Source: Defluviitaleaceae bacterium (GTDB lineage: Bacteria > Bacillota > Clostridia > Lachnospirales > WRAX01). Taken from it: a stretch of 35,479 bases of DNA. Positions 1 to 16,739 of this stretch are shown here, piece after piece (positions within the stretch are counted from its first letter, which is position 1; every line of letters begins with the position of its first letter). The DNA lies in the NCBI GenBank assembly GCA_009787945.1, contig WQSI01000002.1, positions 1 to 35,479 on the forward strand, read 5' to 3'. Both the position numbers and the translations under genes were made by a program. Below the pieces are notes generated by a model. It did no database searches, was not told where the DNA came from, and worked only from the letters and a program-made list of their open reading frames with translations.

Positions 1-104
1 ATTTTCTTAATCTGTTGTTTTTAGGAGTTGTGGCGTTGGTCACGCTTTTGGAGTACATAGACGGAAAGAAGAAAAACAAACGCCGCCCTCCCAAGCAGGA
101 TTAG
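1..104 (+). CDS. Small hydrophobic peptide, copy 1 (5'-truncated by window edge), candidate type I toxin
   Basis: Reading frame from position 3 gives ..FLNLLFLGVVALVTLLEYIDGKKKNKRRPPKQD with stop TAG at 102..104. It is a paralog of the 342..458 ORF; of 15 differing codons, 8 are synonymous. Confidence 0.45.
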   Translation, partial: FLNLLFLGVVALVTLLEYIDGKKKNKRRPPKQD

Positions 105-115
105 CGGCGTTTGTT
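75..115. terminator. Hairpin spanning the stop codon of peptide ORF copy 1; intrinsic terminator for the antisense RNA
   Basis: AACAAACGCCGC (75..86) pairs with GCGGCGTTTGTT (104..115), a 12-bp stem. On the minus strand it is followed by TTTTCTTCTTTCC. The plus-strand U-tract is displaced and weak. Confidence 0.5.
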
Positions 116-163
116 ATTAAGATTTTTTAATCAATGAACGCAAAGCCTGTTGACTTGTGCGAT

Positions 164-200
164 AGAGGGGATGTTGACGCATCCTCTCTTTTTGTTGCTT
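164..200 (+). terminator. Rho-independent terminator for the plus-strand peptide mRNA (copy 1); also the 5' stem-loop of antisense RNA 1
   Basis: AGAGGGGATG (164..173) pairs with CATCCTCTCT (180..189): 10 bp with one G-U and a 6-nt loop. It is followed by TTTTTGTTGCTTTT. Confidence 0.55.
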
Positions 201-213
201 TTGGTATAATAAA

Positions 214-242
214 ATTATAGCATGTGTGGGGCAGATTGTCAA
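214..242 (-). promoter_or_regulatory. Sigma-A consensus promoter driving antisense RNA 1
   Basis: The minus strand reads TTGACA (242..237), a 17-nt spacer, then TATAAT (219..214), an exact consensus. Confidence 0.6.
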
Positions 243-259
243 TAGAATATTTAAATTTC

Positions 260-291
260 TTGACTTTTGGGGATTTTGTGTAAAATATAAT
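260..291 (+). promoter_or_regulatory. Putative, sub-optimal promoter for peptide ORF copy 2
   Basis: TTGACT lies at 260..265. Candidate -10 boxes are TAAAAT (281..286, 15-nt spacer), AAATAT (283..288, 17 nt) and TATAAT (286..291, 20 nt). None has ideal geometry. Confidence 0.3.
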
Positions 292-341
292 AACGCACTT
301 GGAGGCAGGCTTTGACACCCTCATAGAAAGGGGGTTAGCCT

Positions 342-458
342 ATGTGGATTTGTGATTTTCTTAATCTAATATTTCTTGGCGTTGTGGCGTTTGTCACACT
401 CGCTGATTACATAGATGATAAGAAGAAAAACAAACGCCGCCCTCCTGACAGAGACTAG
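342..458 (+). CDS. 38-aa hydrophobic peptide with a Lys/Arg-rich tail, candidate type I toxin (copy 2)
   Basis: ATG at 342 is preceded by the GGGGG Shine-Dalgarno (SD) sequence (330..335 region, 7-nt spacing). The product is MWICDFLNLIFLGVVAFVTLADYIDDKKKNKRRPPDRD: one predicted TM segment plus a charged tail. The divergence pattern from copy 1 fits coding constraint. Confidence 0.5.
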   Translation: MWICDFLNLIFLGVVAFVTLADYIDDKKKNKRRPPDRD

Positions 459-548
459 CAACGCGTTTGTTTGAAATTTTAAACTAATAGTTGCAAAGCC
501 TGTCGACTTGTGCGTAGGAAGGTCTGTTCCTGCAGACCTTCTTTTGTT
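418..548 (-). ncRNA. Predicted antisense sRNA 2 (about 130 nt), candidate type I antitoxin
   Basis: It runs from the consensus promoter 555..583 (TSS near 548) to the hairpin 428..472 plus U-tract. It overlaps the last 13 or so codons and the 3' UTR of the 342..458 ORF. Confidence 0.45.
428..472. terminator. Hairpin spanning the stop codon of peptide ORF copy 2; terminator for antisense RNA 2
   Basis: AAACAAACGC (428..437) pairs with GCGTTTGTTT (463..472). On the minus strand it is followed by TTTTCTTCTTATC. The loop is long (25 nt). Confidence 0.4.
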
Positions 549-552
549 ATTT
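516..552 (+). terminator. Rho-independent terminator for the peptide mRNA (copy 2); also the 5' stem-loop of antisense RNA 2
   Basis: GAAGGTCTG (518..526) pairs with CAGACCTTC (533..541), with a 6-nt loop, followed by TTTTGTTATTT. The stem sequence is unrelated to copy 1 but pairing is kept. Confidence 0.55.
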
Positions 553-554
553 CT

Positions 555-583
555 ATTATACCAAACAAACACCCCAATGTCAA
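555..583 (-). promoter_or_regulatory. Sigma-A consensus promoter driving antisense RNA 2
   Basis: The minus strand reads TTGACA (583..578), a 17-nt spacer, then TATAAT (560..555). Confidence 0.6.
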
Positions 584-598
584 CAGAAAATTATCACC

Positions 599-627
599 TT
601 GACGAATTTGCTTGTTGGGGATATAAT
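599..627 (+). promoter_or_regulatory. Promoter of pdp
   Basis: TTGACG (599..604), a 17-nt spacer, then TATAAT (622..627). It sits back-to-back with the antisense RNA 2 promoter. Confidence 0.55.
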
Positions 628-658: not shown

Positions 659-1897
659 ATGAGCATATTTGAGATTATACAGGCTAAAAAAGAAGGCGAG
701 GCTCTTAGCCCCCAGCAGATTGATTTTGTTGTGGCGGGGTTTTCTGACGGCAGGGTAAGCGAGGGGCAGATGGGGGCTTTGCTGATGGCCATTTGCCTAA
801 AGGGCTTCACCAGGGAGGAAACCACAGCCCTTACCCTTGCCATGGCAAATTCGGGGGATGTTCTTGATTTTGAGGGCTTTGGCGGGGTTGTTGCAGACAA
901 GCACTCGACAGGAGGGGTTGGGGATAAGCTAACCCTTACCATCGCCCCAATGTGCGCTAGTTTGGGGGTTTCTATGGCTAAAATGTCTGGACGTTCCCTT
1001 GGGCACACTGGAGGAACTATTGACAAGCTTGAGGCAATACCTGGCTTTAAGGTGGACTTGCCAAATGAGGAATTAATGAGGATTTTGAGCCGCGTTGGCG
1101 TGTTTATCGCGAGCCAAACCGCAAACCTTGCCCCTGCTGATAAAACCATCTATGCCCTACGGGATAAAACCGCCACTGTAGACAGCCCCGCCCTTATCGC
1201 CGCAAGTGTGATGAGCAAGAAAATTGCGGCAGGGGCGCAGAATATCGTCCTTGATGTAAAGGTGGGCAGTGGGGCGTTTATGAAAACTTTAGAAGACGCC
1301 AGGCATCTTGCCCAAATTATGGTAGACATTGGCAAAGACTGCGGCAGGGGCATGGCGGCGGTGCTGACCGCTATGGATGCCCCCCTTGGCAGGGCTGTTG
1401 GCACTGGGCTTGAGGTGATGGAGGCTATTGATGTGTTGCAAGGGAAAGGTCCTGCTGACATACGGGATTTAAGCGTGGAGCTTACTGCTCAAATCTACTC
1501 CTTGTCTAAAGGGGTTGATATGGAAATTTCCCGAGAAATATCTAAAACTTGTCTTGAAAATGGCACAGCCTTTGCCAAATTTAAAGAGATGGTTGAAGCC
1601 CAAGGGGGCAACCTTGATGGGGTCGCCCAGGGCATTTCAGCAGATAAGCTGGATGTTTTTGCGTCAAGCACTGGATTTATAACTTCTATAGATGGCGAAA
1701 CAATTGGCAAGGTAGCCAATCAAAGCGGTGGTATGACCCTTTATAAGAGCGTTGGCAGTCAAGTGGCAGTTGGCGATAAGGTAGCAAGCATCTATGGAAC
1801 AGCTGATGAGCAGATGGCAAAAAGAGCCGAAGAAGCCTTCACCTACGGAGGCGAGAAGCCCGAAATTCCGCCACTTGTTTACGAGGTAATAAAGTAG
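659..1897 (+). CDS. pdp: Pyrimidine-nucleoside (thymidine) phosphorylase
   Basis: The ORF-track product carries KHSTGGVGDK and GRSLGHTGGTIDKLE motifs plus the C-terminal PYNP domain. I chose the ATG at 659 (MSIFEIIQAKK) because a GGAGAG SD lies upstream and the 599 start sits inside the promoter. Confidence 0.93.
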   Translation: MSIFEIIQAKKEGEALSPQQIDFVVAGFSDGRVSEGQMGALLMAICLKGFTREETTALTLAMANSGDVLDFEGFGGVVADKHSTGGVGDKLTLTIAPMCASLGVSMAKMSGRSLGHTGGTIDKLEAIPGFKVDLPNEELMRILSRVGVFIASQTANLAPADKTIYALRDKTATVDSPALIAASVMSKKIAAGAQNIVLDVKVGSGAFMKTLEDARHLAQIMVDIGKDCGRGMAAVLTAMDAPLGRAVGTGLEVMEAIDVLQGKGPADIRDLSVELTAQIYSLSKGVDMEISREISKTCLENGTAFAKFKEMVEAQGGNLDGVAQGISADKLDVFASSTGFITSIDGETIGKVANQSGGMTLYKSVGSQVAVGDKVASIYGTADEQMAKRAEEAFTYGGEKPEIPPLVYEVIK

Positions 1898-1945
1898 AGC
1901 AGAAATCAAGAATAGAAAATGATACCTAACGAAAATGGTGCAATT

Positions 1946-3691
1946 ATGAAAAAATGGATATTGAAAAACCATGATGCCGACACGGCTTTAATGGCAAAGA
2001 CCTTGAAAATCACCCCAGGTCTTGCAAACCTTTTGGCAACAAGGGGTGTTAAGACCAGAAACACCGCAATCAAATATCTTAACCCCCTTCTTGACTATCT
2101 CCACCCAATGGGCGATATGGCTGGGGTTAGTGATGGCGTTAATATCATTAACCAAGCCATAACAAACGGTGATAAAATCTGCATATATGGCGATTATGAC
2201 GTGGATGGTGTGTCCTCCACTGTTATTTTAATGAAAGGGCTAACTGCCCTTGGGGCAAATGTTGACTACTACATACCCCACCGTGAGCGTGAGGGCTATG
2301 GGCTTAACATCCCCGCCGTGGAAGCTTTGGCGCAGGATTTTAAAGTCCTTATAGCCGTGGATAATGGCATAGCCAGCATTGCAGAGGTCGCCCAAGCTGT
2401 GGAACTTGGCTTAACAGTAATTATAATCGACCATCACAACCCGCAATTTGATGACGCGGGCTATGAGGTTCTGCCTGCCGCTCATGCCATCATCAACCCC
2501 AAGCAATCCGCCTGCCCATATCCCTTTAAGGAGATGAGTGCCGCAGGGCTTTGTTACAAACTAGCCCTGCATCTAGGAGTTGCCACGGAAGAAATGCTGA
2601 TTTTCGCCGCTATGGCAGCTTTTTGTGATGTGGTTGACCTGATTTCAGAAAACCGCATCATAGCTAAAAACGGCTTGCGCCTGCTAACAAAAAATGGCAC
2701 AACAAATTTAGGGCTTGACACCCTTGTCAAAAGGCGAAATTTGGAGTATAATGATATTGATGATTTTGCAATGGGCTTTATTCTAGGGCCTTGCATTAAC
2801 GCAAGCGGCCGCCTTGATAGTGCCGCCCTTGCTGTCGAATTATTTTTGACAGATGACAAGGACAAAGCCGCAGAGCTTGCCCAAAGGCTTATAGACCTAA
2901 ACGAAGAGCGCAAAGAGATGACAGGACGTTTTGTTGATGAGATTATTGAAAGCCTGCAAGAGCCTTTGGATGACATTTTGGTTATCTACCACGAAGGCAT
3001 CCATGAAAGCATAGCAGGCATTGTAGCAGGGCGGGTGAAGGAAGCTACCCACCATCCCGCCATTGTTTTCACAAAAGCAGGGGAGGTTGCCAAAGGCTCT
3101 GCCCGTTCTATTGAGTTTTATAATGTTTTTGAGGCGATGTCTGCCAATAAAGATTTGTTTCTGCGGTTTGGAGGGCATCCCATGGCGGCAGGGGCAACCA
3201 TGGAAATTGGCAAGGTTGATGAGCTTCGCAAGCGGCTTAACGCCCAAAGCCGCCTTACAGCAGAGGATTTCACACCTATTTTGTATGGGGATATGGAGCT
3301 AACCTTAGAAGAAGCCACCTTCGACCTTGCCCAGAGCCTAGATTTGCTGACCCCTTTCGGCAAAGCCAACAAAGAACCTGTGTTTTTTAGTTATGCAGTG
3401 GTAACAGAACGCGCCGAAGTTATCGGCAAAAGCGGAGAAACCTTGCGCTTTACCTTTAGAAGCGACACGGGGCGAAAAATCACCGCAATTGCCTTTAAAG
3501 GCGTTAGTAAATTTGCAGAGCATTTGGAAAATAACTATAGAGAAGATGTGGCGAAAGCCTTTACCGCAGGACGGTTGAAAAACATGACCATCAAATTGGA
3601 CATTGCCTATAACCTGCGGATAAACACATGGCAGGGCAACAGCAGCCTGCAGCTTGTTATTTTGGATTTTAAACACCCAAACCTAGTATGA
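1946..3691 (+). CDS. recJ: Single-stranded-DNA-specific exonuclease RecJ
   Basis: DHH family motifs are present: DYDVDGV, IIIDHH and the DHHA1 motif GGHPMAAG. The start is either 1946 (MKKWILKN) or 1919; both have a weak SD. Confidence 0.9.
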   Translation: MKKWILKNHDADTALMAKTLKITPGLANLLATRGVKTRNTAIKYLNPLLDYLHPMGDMAGVSDGVNIINQAITNGDKICIYGDYDVDGVSSTVILMKGLTALGANVDYYIPHREREGYGLNIPAVEALAQDFKVLIAVDNGIASIAEVAQAVELGLTVIIIDHHNPQFDDAGYEVLPAAHAIINPKQSACPYPFKEMSAAGLCYKLALHLGVATEEMLIFAAMAAFCDVVDLISENRIIAKNGLRLLTKNGTTNLGLDTLVKRRNLEYNDIDDFAMGFILGPCINASGRLDSAALAVELFLTDDKDKAAELAQRLIDLNEERKEMTGRFVDEIIESLQEPLDDILVIYHEGIHESIAGIVAGRVKEATHHPAIVFTKAGEVAKGSARSIEFYNVFEAMSANKDLFLRFGGHPMAAGATMEIGKVDELRKRLNAQSRLTAEDFTPILYGDMELTLEEATFDLAQSLDLLTPFGKANKEPVFFSYAVVTERAEVIGKSGETLRFTFRSDTGRKITAIAFKGVSKFAEHLENNYREDVAKAFTAGRLKNMTIKLDIAYNLRINTWQGNSSLQLVILDFKHPNLV

Positions 3692-16626: not shown

Positions 16627-16663
16627 ATGTTGATTTCAAGGGGTTTTGTTTACCGTGTGCATG
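16627..16663. terminator. Bidirectional intrinsic terminator (ends the tRNA-Arg transcript on the minus strand)
   Basis: CCCCTTGAA (16631..16639) pairs with TTCAAGGGG (16647..16655). It is flanked by AAAA on the left and GTTTTGTTT on the right. Confidence 0.7.
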
Positions 16664-16665
16664 AG

Positions 16666-16739
16666 GATTTGAACCCCAGACCTTCTGATCCGTAGTCAGA
16701 CGCTCTGTCCAGCTGAGCTATGCACACCCGTTTCAAACC
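16666..16739 (-). tRNA. tRNA-Arg (anticodon ACG), 74 nt, no encoded CCA
   Basis: Manual cloverleaf: acceptor GTGTGCA/TGCACAC, D arm GCTC-AGCTGGACA-GAGC, anticodon arm TCTGA-CTACGGA-TCAGA, T arm TGGGG-TTCAAAT-CCTCA, discriminator G. Confidence 0.9.

Follow-up and report, generated by a model that had tools for sequence, protein, structure and literature searches.

The window, the whole 35,479-nt stretch of DNA analyzed here, carries two tandem copies, and two only, of a cassette of about 350 bp that is probably a type I toxin-antitoxin (TA)-like module built on the plan of bsrG/SR4. A first-pass annotation had proposed tandem modules of the txpA/RatA and bsrG/SR4 kind. This proposal is now supported by 16 cassettes with the same parts in common, found in eight loci on metagenome contigs, by covariation in their RNA helices, and by selection of these helices on one strand in particular. 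The features of the two window copies are collected in Table 1.

Table 1. Features of the two cassette copies in the window; R1 is a model built from the antisense RNAs of the cassettes.
Feature	Position	Strand	Remarks
Copy 1 putative toxin ORF, 3′ part (5′ side cut by contig end)	1..104 (frame 3..104)	+	translation ends in FLNLLFLGVVALVTLLEYIDGKKKNKRRPPKQD and stop
Copy 1 antisense terminator	66..115 (stem 75..115 across stop codon)	-	U-tract from Lys/Asn codons
Copy 1 predicted antisense RNA	about 207..70	-	R1, 116.9 bits at 69..195
Copy 1 long-range helix (P1-like), 3′ arm	141..161	+	5′ arm upstream of window
Copy 1 sense-mRNA terminator hairpin and T-run	164..200 (hairpin 164..189)	+	complement is the antisense 5′ stem-loop
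Copy 1 antisense promoter, TTGACA-N17-TATAAT with TG	214..242	-	TSS near 207
Copy 2 sense promoter region	260..291	+	TTGACT; -10 poor or mis-spaced; 8/12
Copy 2 long-range helix, 5′ arm CGCACTTGGAGGCAGGCTTTG	294..314	+	partner 494..514
Copy 2 SD-sequestering hairpin	316..334	+	anti-SD CACCCTC 316..322; SD GGGGG 329..333
Copy 2 putative toxin ORF, 38 aa	342..458	+	helix residues 2-32; basic KKKNKRRPP tail
Copy 2 antisense terminator	417..472 (stem 428..472 across last codons and stop)	-	U-tract from AAGAAGAAAAA codons
Copy 2 predicted antisense RNA, about 126 nt, no AUG	423..548	-	R1, 107 bits
Copy 2 long-range helix, 3′ arm CAAAGCCTGTCGACTTGTGCG	494..514	+	partner 294..314
Copy 2 sense-mRNA terminator hairpin and T-run	516..552 (hairpin 516..543)	+	predicted
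Copy 2 antisense promoter, TTGACA-N17-TATAAT with TG	555..583	-	TSS near 548

Structure of the Putative Toxin mRNA

A conserved block at 141..161 and 494..514 had been pointed out in the first-pass annotation. Its positions were confirmed, and a role emerged that the annotation had not seen, in which the block serves as the 3′ arm of a long-range helix and pairs with the 5′ end of the toxin mRNA (294..314 in copy 2). The sense RNA containing this helix had an MFE z of -6.3, and RNAalifold recovered the helix. Plain MAFFT alignment of full sense RNAs misplaces their 5′ untranslated regions (UTRs), and the helix was therefore measured with a duplex-energy matrix and with anchored extracts of the two arms. 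In the matrix (13 × 13), cognate 5′ and 3′ arms formed the most stable duplexes. The 15-bp core of the helix was 90% paired, while slid controls gave 28-51%, and 7 of the 15 pairs had changed on both sides in a compensatory manner, a level of covariation that 0 of 500 shuffles reached. Wobble pairs in this helix occur in the sense orientation only. Beside it, the Shine-Dalgarno (SD) sequence is predicted to be sequestered in a short hairpin, and this hairpin lines up with that of the SD in the BsrG consensus of Rfam; the probability that the SD is unpaired was 0.01-0.19 in 9 of 13 modules and ≤0.49 in the others.

The hairpin downstream of the 3′ arm (164..189 and 516..543) had been described as the first stem-loop of the antisense RNA, with unrelated sequence in the two copies and conserved pairing. 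That description of sequence and pairing holds, but the main role of the hairpin is as terminator of the sense mRNA. The hairpin is 99.3% paired in the sense and 92.5% in the antisense orientation, its strand-restricted G·U pairs comprise nine that form in the sense RNA only and none that form in the antisense RNA only, and a T-run follows it on the plus strand in both copies. The mRNA would therefore continue past the stop-codon hairpin to about 550, and the predicted toxin mRNA of copy 2 runs from about 293 to 550 (~255 nt). The sense promoter, earlier judged to be weak, is so in window copy 2 (8/12), which may be weakly expressed given this poor promoter; weakness is not general, however, since five relatives have sense promoters that match at 12/12.

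The Peptide Family and Its Genomic Setting

Both of the paralogous small ORFs that had been proposed were found again by ORF analysis. The complete ORF of copy 2 translates as MWICDFLNLIFLGVVAFVTLADYIDDKKKNKRRPPDRD, and the missing start of the truncated ORF of copy 1 was recovered from a contig that is 99.8% identical (L001) as MWYDFLNLLFLGVVALVTLLEYIDGKKKNKRRPP[K/R]QD. Peptide relatives are 38-45 aa in length and 53-61% identical, and have the motif ...LIFxG..AFV..ADYIExKxKNKRRP in common. The single helix and Lys/Arg-rich tail described at first are borne out by an AlphaFold model with one helix at residues 2-32 (pLDDT 82) and by conservation of the KKKNKRRP tail. With 37-45 aa, one hydrophobic helix, and a charged C-terminal tail, the peptides have the generic features of type I toxins, including a length of <60 aa.

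The peptide had not been recognized as belonging to a named family, and searches agree with this. Pfam, NCBIfam, PADLOC, and PDB yielded no family match, and PHROGs yielded weak matches to families of unknown function alone (best E 1e-3, P0003). Five peptide variants had no match at E ≤ 10 to Pfam Hol_Tox (PF16935, with its N-terminal YESL...FG motif), a search in which the positive controls BsrG and TxpA gave E 1e-8 and E 1e-7, respectively; nor did the peptide match the Fst Pfam family. BLASTP gave no match, and hhalign against a small TxpA/BsrG alignment returned a probability of 9%, a weak test because the underlying TxpA search gave only three close relatives. In 185,579 species-representative genomes, peptide patterns matched 193 times with none confirmed, and the 21-nt conserved block matched just twice, by chance, in MAGs of Planctomycetaceae and of Acidobacteriota. 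No family member was found among IMG/VR viral contigs, by tblastn of the peptide against plasmids and phages, or in a word-indexed protein search with two peptides concatenated as the query. The family is known from a handful of metagenome assemblies, seemingly from related samples, and the JGI sample series of the relatives presumably consists of termite-gut metagenomes. Gene callers overlook the peptide ORF in most assemblies.

In the relatives’ loci the cassette is single or in tandems of two to three, and one related array comprises three copies. The suggestion that the window’s own array continues upstream could not be demonstrated, because every assembly breaks inside the array. Four independent contigs terminate inside such arrays, and the best contig found via the neighboring pdp gene reaches just 48 nt further upstream. 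Cassettes occur in phage regions, a setting typical of type I TA systems: those of L005 lie between a replisome organizer and a terminase, and that of L014 between Dit and a tail protein. The L007 cassette adjoins a MazE-like gene and a holin. A Bacillota host is hinted at only by the style of promoter and SD, by SPP1-type phage genes, and by a sub-threshold match to an L20 leader in L011.

The location of several cassettes among phage structural or lysis genes would also suit a non-toxic peptide with the same sense/antisense architecture, such as a moron, a holin-like or antiholin modulator, or a regulator of a membrane protein, tuned by cis-antisense RNA. That the peptide matches no toxin family favors this reading, as does the precedent of YhzE, a small hydrophobic protein with an antisense RNA that was not toxic (PMC2887945). 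It is nevertheless quite unlikely, given that the closing helix and SD hairpin lock the mRNA in a manner typical of toxin mRNAs, that all copies have consensus antisense promoters, that a gene of proven toxicity has a similar RNA chassis, and that one cassette has kept its antisense gene after decay of its ORF. In the latter, cassette 1 of L009, the promoter and SD are gone, the ATG has become ATA, and 43 nt are missing from the segment that encodes the helix; the 3′ half remains at ~96% identity, with a perfect antisense promoter. Survival of the antisense gene after its ORF had decayed fits a need to neutralize paralogous toxins.

The Predicted Antisense RNA

The exact minus-strand promoters reported in the first-pass annotation are perfect (12/12) in both window copies and include TG. 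Co-occurrence of peptide and promoter in relatives, which had been suggested as a check, was seen throughout: the promoter is near-consensus in 16 of 16 cassettes and perfect (12/12) in 12 of them, and its position is constant though the surrounding sequence is unrelated between subfamilies. The predicted antisense RNAs are ~125-140 nt in length and have neither an AUG nor an ORF. In copy 2, the overlap takes in the last ~10 toxin codons and the entire 3′ UTR.

Antisense terminators reaching into the last codons of the ORF had likewise been proposed, and minus-strand terminator-like hairpins with T-tails were located in both copies (98..83 and 451..437), inside the larger stems 75..115 and 428..472. 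The strand on which selection maintains the stop-codon hairpin is the antisense one, where it represents the terminator of the antitoxin. It is 94.4% paired in the antisense and 82.2% in the sense orientation, and its G·U pairs, 25 antisense-only as against 3 sense-only, argue for selection on the minus strand. In the strand-specific hairpins, 8 of 21 pairs are compensatory, and 0 of 500 shuffles had as many.

AT-rich intergenic DNA often has promoter-like hexamers, and hairpins are necessarily present on both strands. These points favor the view that the minus-strand promoters and hairpins are incidental, representing bidirectional terminators together with promoters of spurious or unrelated transcripts, and that the peptide mRNA is under no antisense regulation. 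Five promoter-like sites were counted in the region, with 1.6 expected from shuffles. An incidental origin is very improbable, however, in view of the same placement of the promoter in every cassette despite unrelated surroundings, the G·U asymmetry of the stop-codon hairpin, a predicted transcript that is free of ORFs and stops ~125 nt downstream, and the agreement of the RatA model and the R1/SR4 match (described below) on position and strand.

Coding Constraint on the Peptide ORF

The peptide ORF is under coding constraint. A recount of the 15 differing codons reported between the window copies, 8 of them synonymous, gave identical numbers and codon pairs. The dN/dS ratio between the two paralogue types is ~0.2 (Nei-Gojobori), and third codon positions hold 15 of their 25 differences. 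Entropy at the three codon positions is 0.78/0.27/1.27 for 12 distinct ORFs, and pairwise differences are distributed as 469/152/740. The frame of the peptide ORF is the only one open in all copies, and the coding signal is missing from other frames apart from the reverse frame that shares the wobble positions and is interrupted by stops. All intact copies keep an SD and ATG with the right spacing, and indels between subfamilies are multiples of three. Overlap with the antisense terminator constrains the final nine codons, with AACAAACGCCGCC nearly invariant, and three-base periodicity peaks in codons 1-20, outside the terminator. Minus-strand ORFs at 366..572, 117..242, and 127..324 were considered as genes and rejected as unconserved, with frames that carry no coding signal.

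The idea that the ORF is untranslated, and that the repeats are structured non-coding RNA or mobile units in which constraints of RNA structure produce the coding signal, draws on the highly structured RNA, the terminator constraint on the last nine codons, and the gene calls that miss the ORF, but it can scarcely be credited against the location of the periodicity, the low dN/dS in the single frame open in all copies, the conserved SD and ATG spacing, and the in-frame indels.

Proposed Mechanism

In the proposed mechanism, for which we infer transcription, RNA-RNA pairing kinetics, RNase III cleavage, and toxicity, the sense promoter would drive synthesis of a toxin mRNA that is closed in a long helix by its 5′ end and 3′-UTR block and whose SD would be locked in the short hairpin. 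This mRNA would encode a single-helix membrane peptide of 37-38 residues with a Lys/Arg tail. Just downstream, the consensus promoter on the opposite strand would make an antisense RNA that traverses first the mRNA terminator and then the 3′ block and stops at the toxin stop-codon hairpin, where the KKKNKRRP codons would give the G+C arm and the U-tract. If the analogy with SR4 holds, the abundant antisense RNA would pair with about 120 nt of the mRNA 3′ end, with two effects. The duplex would be a substrate for RNase III, leading to mRNA decay, and the 5′ arm of the mRNA would be displaced from the closing helix, so that AGGCU, once released, could pair with the AGCCU that immediately precedes the AUG, occluding the start site more tightly. 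Upon loss of the antisense RNA, e.g., with the cassette or prophage, the highly structured mRNA would persist and be translated, and the peptide would damage the membrane or cell envelope.

Refolding with the antisense-covered region masked gave a thermodynamic prediction in which the start region becomes paired with the released 5′ arm. The predicted probability that the AUG is unpaired fell upon masking from 0.73 to 0.07 in L9b, from 0.90 to 0.28 in L12, and from 0.76 to 0.12 in L14; refolding at the start codon was strong in these 3 of 13 modules only, with a smaller drop in L5a-c.

Significance

The cassettes open no new class of system. They add an unannotated putative toxin peptide family to the type I TA systems with 3′-overlapping antisense RNAs, and they indicate that the bsrG mRNA design, in which P1 and a locked SD are combined with an antitoxin that lies over the 3′ arm of P1, is found again well beyond Bacillus, where covariation supports it. 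This recurrence provides independent comparative backing for the proposed dual-action model of SR4. In practical terms, such arrays break metagenome assemblies, and the modules flag phage or mobile DNA.

A tentative and somewhat doubtful extension is that the bsrG-type RNA chassis, consisting of the closing helix, the near-identical SD hairpin, and a 3′ antisense terminator written in Lys/Arg codons, is an ancient, portable scaffold whose toxin ORF has been exchanged for unrelated ones. If so, the family would represent toxin replacement inside a conserved RNA framework, and the tandem mosaic arrays with their copy-specific stem-loops would be mutually insulated, phage-borne addiction or abortive-infection modules.

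Comparison with Known Systems

Type I TA systems of Clostridioides difficile (CD2517.1/RCd8 and others) are prophage-associated and encode small helical toxins with Lys-rich tails (PMC6563280). The cassettes resemble them in having Clostridia-type hosts, an association with prophages, and Lys-rich tails; no sequence relation between the two groups was found or reported, and the C. difficile modules are not described with a bsrG-type closing helix. In hok/sok (fbi) and aapA1/IsoA1, as in the cassettes, a 5′-3′ helix is associated with a full-length toxin mRNA that is compact and poorly translatable. The antisense RNAs of those two systems target the 5′ region, and activation requires 3′ trimming, whereas the antisense RNA of the cassettes covers the 3′ arm of the lock itself.

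In the par system (Fst/RNA II of Enterococcus plasmid pAD1), as in the cassettes, the toxin (putative in the cassettes) is a small membrane helix with a charged tail, the RNAs are convergent, and one terminator is common to both genes. In par, direct repeats make both 5′ ends complementary, which gives rise to pairing. In contrast, 294..314 and 494..514 are inverted repeats, so that the copy of the mRNA 5′ arm in the antisense RNA is of the same sense and cannot pair with that arm; pairing in the cassettes would go through the 3′ overlap.

The txpA/RatA system of the B. subtilis skin element, with its Enterococcus relatives (EF3263), has a convergent 3′-overlapping antitoxin RNA like that of the cassettes. 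The putative cassette toxin (37-45 aa) differs from TxpA (59 aa) in length and is unrelated to it in sequence, and RatA is 222 nt in length as against ~125-140 nt for the cassette antisense RNA. The Rfam RatA model (RF01776) matched the minus strand of the window at 481..558 (35.9 bits) and 124..203 (25.5 bits) and the antisense strand of L005 module 1 (33.1 bits), scores that lie below the gathering score of 49 bits. The cassettes have in common with the RatA model a leader rich in A, a stem-loop whose loop is GCnnnAAC, and the block downstream. In E. faecalis, txpA-ratA adjoins mazEF (PMC6563280), an arrangement resembled by the L007 cassette beside its MazE-like gene.

In bsrG of the B. subtilis prophage SPbeta, structure probing revealed that nt 1-35 pair with nt 232-262 as helix P1, that a stem of 4 bp contains the SD, and that the terminator comes one nucleotide after P1; binding of SR4 releases the 5′ end of the mRNA and lengthens the SD stem (PMC3834814). 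The cassettes differ from bsrG/SR4 in that their peptide is without detectable similarity to BsrG/TxpA, their antisense RNA (~125-140 nt) lacks the non-complementary 5′ stem-loop of SR4, they form tandem arrays of two to three, and their hosts are uncultured bacteria rather than Bacillus. The Rfam BsrG model (RF01412) matched the sense strand throughout and was aligned end to end, apart from a partial alignment in window copy 2. Scores were 41.9 bits in L011 (E 1e-6 to 1e-8, being E 1e-6 in 41 kb), 26.5 bits in L005 module 3, 16.7 bits in L012, and 13 bits (partial) in window copy 2; no cassette reached the gathering score of 55 bits, and the true bsrG scores 210 bits. The best match of R1 at the SPbeta bsrG locus (20.5 bits, E 1.5e-4) coincides exactly with the bsrG-overlapping portion of SR4. 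Sequence-only similarity to bsrG was marginal by nhmmer (E 0.0017), and the likeness could therefore be partly convergent. The resemblance to txpA/RatA and bsrG/SR4 that had been proposed is upheld by Rfam matches that are correctly placed though sub-threshold, and by the finding of SR4 in SPbeta with R1.

The architecture of bsrG/SR4 was found in the window as a P1-type 5′-3′ helix (294..314 with 494..514), an SD in a short stem beside it (the CACCCUC/GGGGGU hairpin at 316..334), and, at the sequence level, a convergent 3′-overlapping antitoxin ending at the ORF end. Like the cassettes, bsrG/SR4 has a 38-aa peptide with a Lys-rich end, a phage context, an mRNA of ~260-300 nt closed by a long 5′-3′ helix (P1), and a terminator immediately after P1. 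The sequence of its SD stem (CCCCUAU.GAAAGGGG) is nearly identical to that of the cassettes. In both, the convergent antitoxin starts just past the terminator, overlaps the mRNA by ~120 nt, and ends at the end of the ORF, where Lys codons form the U-tract.

The paired cassettes and their surroundings

Two paralogous cassettes, each combining a peptide ORF with a predicted antisense-RNA gene, occupy positions 1..600, copy 1 being truncated by the contig end; no further copies were found within the 35.5-kb window. The ORFs of the first-pass annotation (38 aa in copy 2, truncated in copy 1) were recovered where it placed them, as were the minus-strand promoters (perfect TTGACA-N17-TATAAT, with TG upstream), the conserved block, the stem-loops, and the minus-strand hairpin-plus-T-tail sites extending into the last ORF codons. 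Its codon count was exact (15 codons differ between copies, 8 of them synonymous). Promoter-like sites in the cassette region number 5, against 1.6 expected. The start of the copy 1 ORF (MWYDFLNLL...) was read from a 99.8%-identical metagenome contig extending 48 nt further upstream.

Positions of cassette elements and neighboring features in the window
Feature	Position	Strand
Copy 2 cassette	~243..600	
Peptide ORF, copy 1 (truncated)	ends at 104	+
Peptide ORF, copy 2	342..458	+
Antisense promoters, copies 1 and 2	242..214; 583..555	-
mRNA 5' arm of long-range helix, copy 2	294..314	+
Conserved block, copies 1 and 2	141..161; 494..514	
Hairpin plus T-tail in last ORF codons, copies 1 and 2	98..83; 451..437	-
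Stem-loop, copies 1 and 2	164..189; 516..543	
Palindrome	202-219	
Extended -10	202..210	+
Antisense -10	219..214	-
Promoter divergent from copy 2 antisense promoter	599-627	
Phosphorylase gene and recJ	659-3691	
tRNA gene	16654..16727	-

In the palindrome TATAAT-AAA-ATTATA, an extended -10 (TGGTATAAT) and the antisense -10 face away from each other. The palindrome is kept in window copy 1, in the related locus L001 and in modules 2-3 of another, L005, but is not conserved in window copy 2 or L005 module 1; the extended -10 could drive a plus-strand transcript toward the next cassette. Beyond copy 2, a near-consensus promoter (TTGACG-N17-TATAAT) leads into a pyrimidine-nucleoside phosphorylase gene (Glycos_trans_3N/Glycos_transf_3) and recJ, so that in this genome ordinary housekeeping genes lie directly beside the array.

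Relatives and their genomic settings

The peptide matched nothing in Pfam or NCBIfam or in a word-indexed protein search; searches of species-representative genomes gave no genuine relative, and those of plasmids, phages and viral contigs gave none. A JGI metagenome scan located a three-cassette array (L005, ~2195..3270) flanked by a phage replisome-organizer gene on one side and terminase genes on the other; a tRNA-Leu adjoins it. HMMER, run exhaustively against 1.84 billion representative proteins, picked out four small ones (38-45 aa, 53-61% identity), and a profile search brought the number to 11, all unnamed and devoid of Pfam domains. Their contigs carry one cassette (L011, L012, L013, L014, L016), two (L007) or three (L009). 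Neighbors are chromosomal at some loci (groEL, tig/clpP, infC-rplT, fliD) and phage genes at others, the L014 cassette sitting between Dit and a tail protein. The L007 array (L007:2012-3431 region) adjoins genes for a MazE-like antitoxin (3228..3431) and a Phage_holin_4_1 protein (2012..2407), recalling Enterococcus faecalis, in which txpA-ratA adjoins mazEF (PMC6563280). The known range of the family is thus far a few related metagenome assemblies only; the analysis took in 13 complete cassettes along with window copy 1 and a single decayed copy.

Other elements were seen at these loci. A ribosomal protein L20 leader upstream of infC-rpmI-rplT (L011:5852-5965, minus strand), sub-threshold at 43.9 bits (gathering score 58.7), hints at Bacillota as hosts. 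Four independent assemblies (NCBI contig, ENA, Logan, JGI) break off inside a cassette array, at window:1, L001:1, L002:1 and L006:1, and array copies are mosaic, window copy 1 matching L005 module 2 in its 5' part and L005 module 1 in its 3' part; this suggests that copies have recombined or that the assembly has collapsed. L005 also has a small ORF of a different sort (L005:1-200, minus strand; MIEISMTHFEFFMSIMTGALVYIAYRNLKQNKKK, 34 aa, hydrophobic, KKK end), with a good Shine-Dalgarno (SD) sequence and a hairpin across its stop codon; this phage-like region may thus contain a further type I-like module, from another family. Directly downstream of their cassettes, L013 (3290-3500) and L016 (2470-2665) both have a consensus promoter followed by a leader of ~190 nt that forms two strong hairpins and matched no Rfam family; the small ORF that follows has 44 aa in L016 and at least 78 aa in L013, where it runs off the contig end.

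Coding evidence for the peptide

Judged by its sequence, the cassette ORF codes for protein. Comparison of the two paralogue types gives a dN/dS of ~0.2, with 15 of 25 differences at third positions, and entropy is 0.78/0.27/1.27 at codon positions 1/2/3 (12 distinct ORFs; 20 codons outside the antisense terminator). The other reading frames lack the dN/dS and third-position pattern; the one reverse frame that has its wobble positions in common with the ORF contains stops. The family motif is [DN]xL[ND]LIFxG..AFV..ADYI[ED]xKxKNKRRP, and AlphaFold predicts a single helix at residues 2-32. Invariant AACAAACGCCGCC (codons N-K-R-R-P) also serves the antisense terminator as its 3' arm, so that the conserved basic tail is doubly constrained.

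P0002, a 499-aa predicted protein of the representative library, has about 8 tandem repeats, each containing ...CWTGLIGFVTIADDRSQKRNHGRN..., which resembles the peptide's helix and basic tail (E 2e-8, 6 stretches). Possibly this protein is spurious, an ORF reading through tandem copies of a related cassette.

Antisense RNA, terminators and promoters

R1, a covariance model built for the predicted antisense RNA, realigns all cassettes. In its alignment, 5/9 pairs of the antisense 5' stem-loop show compensatory changes, and the overall covariation was reached by 0/500 shuffles. R1 also matches L005 partially at 1..63 (plus strand, 27.3 bits), in the stretch with the 34-aa ORF, where the match is cut by the locus end.

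Because a hairpin is present on both strands, wobble asymmetry was used to find the selected one. For the stem-loop (516..543 / 164..189), 99.3% of cells pair in the sense and 92.5% in the antisense orientation, with 9 G·U pairs sense-only and none antisense-only. For the stop-codon hairpin, the values are 94.4% antisense versus 82.2% sense, with 25 G·U pairs antisense-only versus 3 sense-only. The former is therefore the terminator of the putative toxin mRNA and the latter that of the predicted antisense RNA. It follows that the sense RNA would pass through the stop-codon hairpin to ~550, and that the antisense RNA would start on the far side of the mRNA terminator and stop within the ORF, with an overlap of ~120 nt. 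The stem-loop, which the annotation had assigned to the antisense RNA, does differ in sequence between copies and keep its pairing, as the annotation stated; the selected strand is the sense.

The antisense promoter is present in 16/16 cassettes (a perfect 12/12 match in 12). The sense promoter, which the annotation called weaker than the antisense one, is poor only in window copy 2 (8/12); distant relatives have strong ones too. In L009 cassette 1 the sense side has decayed: promoter and SD are gone, the start codon has changed from ATG to ATA, and 43 nt that coded for the helix are missing. Its 3' half is still ~96% identical and includes a perfect antisense promoter; such decay with the antisense gene kept fits toxin-antitoxin logic.

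A long-range helix closes the sense mRNA

The conserved block is one side, the 3' arm, of a long-range helix whose other side is the 5' end of the same mRNA. This helix appears in the fold of the 258-nt sense RNA (z = -6.3), together with an SD-burying hairpin and the terminal hairpin, and RNAalifold gives the same structure. Its arms change together across subfamilies: CGCAC/GUGCG to CGUAC/GUACG in L011, GGCUUUG/CAAAGCC to GGUCUUG/CAAGACC in L007, and CUUUGC/GCAAAG to CUUUAC/GUAAAG in L012. Among the arm combinations of a 13x13 duplex-energy matrix, those that join cognate or same-subfamily arms are the most stable. Within the 15-bp core, 90% of cells are paired and 7 pairs have changed on both sides, a covariation reached by 0/500 shuffles; slid controls pair 28-51%.

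Proposed mechanism

The antisense RNA would pair with the last ~10 codons and 3' UTR of the mRNA, yielding an RNase III substrate and evicting the mRNA 5' arm from the closing helix. When the overlap was masked in folding, the freed arm paired with the AGCCU-AUG segment; the probability of an unpaired AUG dropped strongly in 3/13 modules (L9b, L12, L14), moderately in L5a-c and little elsewhere. Loss of the antisense RNA would leave a stable mRNA to be translated, with membrane or envelope damage as the expected outcome.

Comparison with bsrG/SR4, txpA/RatA and par

The cassettes share the plan of bsrG/SR4, here read from sequence and models. Structure probing of bsrG mRNA, alone and in complex with SR4, showed a helix, P1, joining nt 1-35 to nt 232-262, an SD inside a 4-bp stem, and a terminator beginning one nucleotide past P1; SR4 binding frees the 5' 33 nt and lengthens the SD stem to 8 bp, and SR4 affects both decay and translation (Jahn and Brantl, 2013, PMC3834814). 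Over its full length, from P1 through the SD hairpin and AUG to the terminator, the Rfam BsrG model can be aligned to the sense RNA, and its SD hairpin, CCCCUAU.GAAAGGGG, is almost identical in the cassettes. Scores are 41.9 bits for L011 (E ~1e-6 in 41 kb), 26.5 for L005, 16.7 for L012 and 13 for the window, against a gathering score of 55 and 210 for true bsrG. The RatA model matches the antisense strand at 35.9, 33.1 and 25.5 bits (gathering score 49). Conversely, within the SPbeta bsrG locus the best R1 match lies on the SR4 strand, exactly over the bsrG overlap (20.5 bits, E 1.5e-4).

Sequence-only likeness to bsrG is marginal, and no relation of the peptide to TxpA/BsrG (Pfam Hol_Tox) is detectable. 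With sub-gathering RNA scores, the cassettes are therefore not members of RF01412, RF01776 or PF16935 by curated thresholds. They are unlike par/Fst, since the antisense RNA contains the mRNA 5' arm in the same sense and so cannot pair with that arm. The type I reading of the first-pass annotation is supported overall, with details corrected: the cassettes are best read as a type I toxin-antitoxin module of the bsrG/SR4-txpA/RatA kind, which by analogy would function as BsrG, RatA and Hol_Tox systems do. They are probably a remote relative of the BsrG/RatA systems at the RNA level, a variant with an unclassified predicted toxin peptide.
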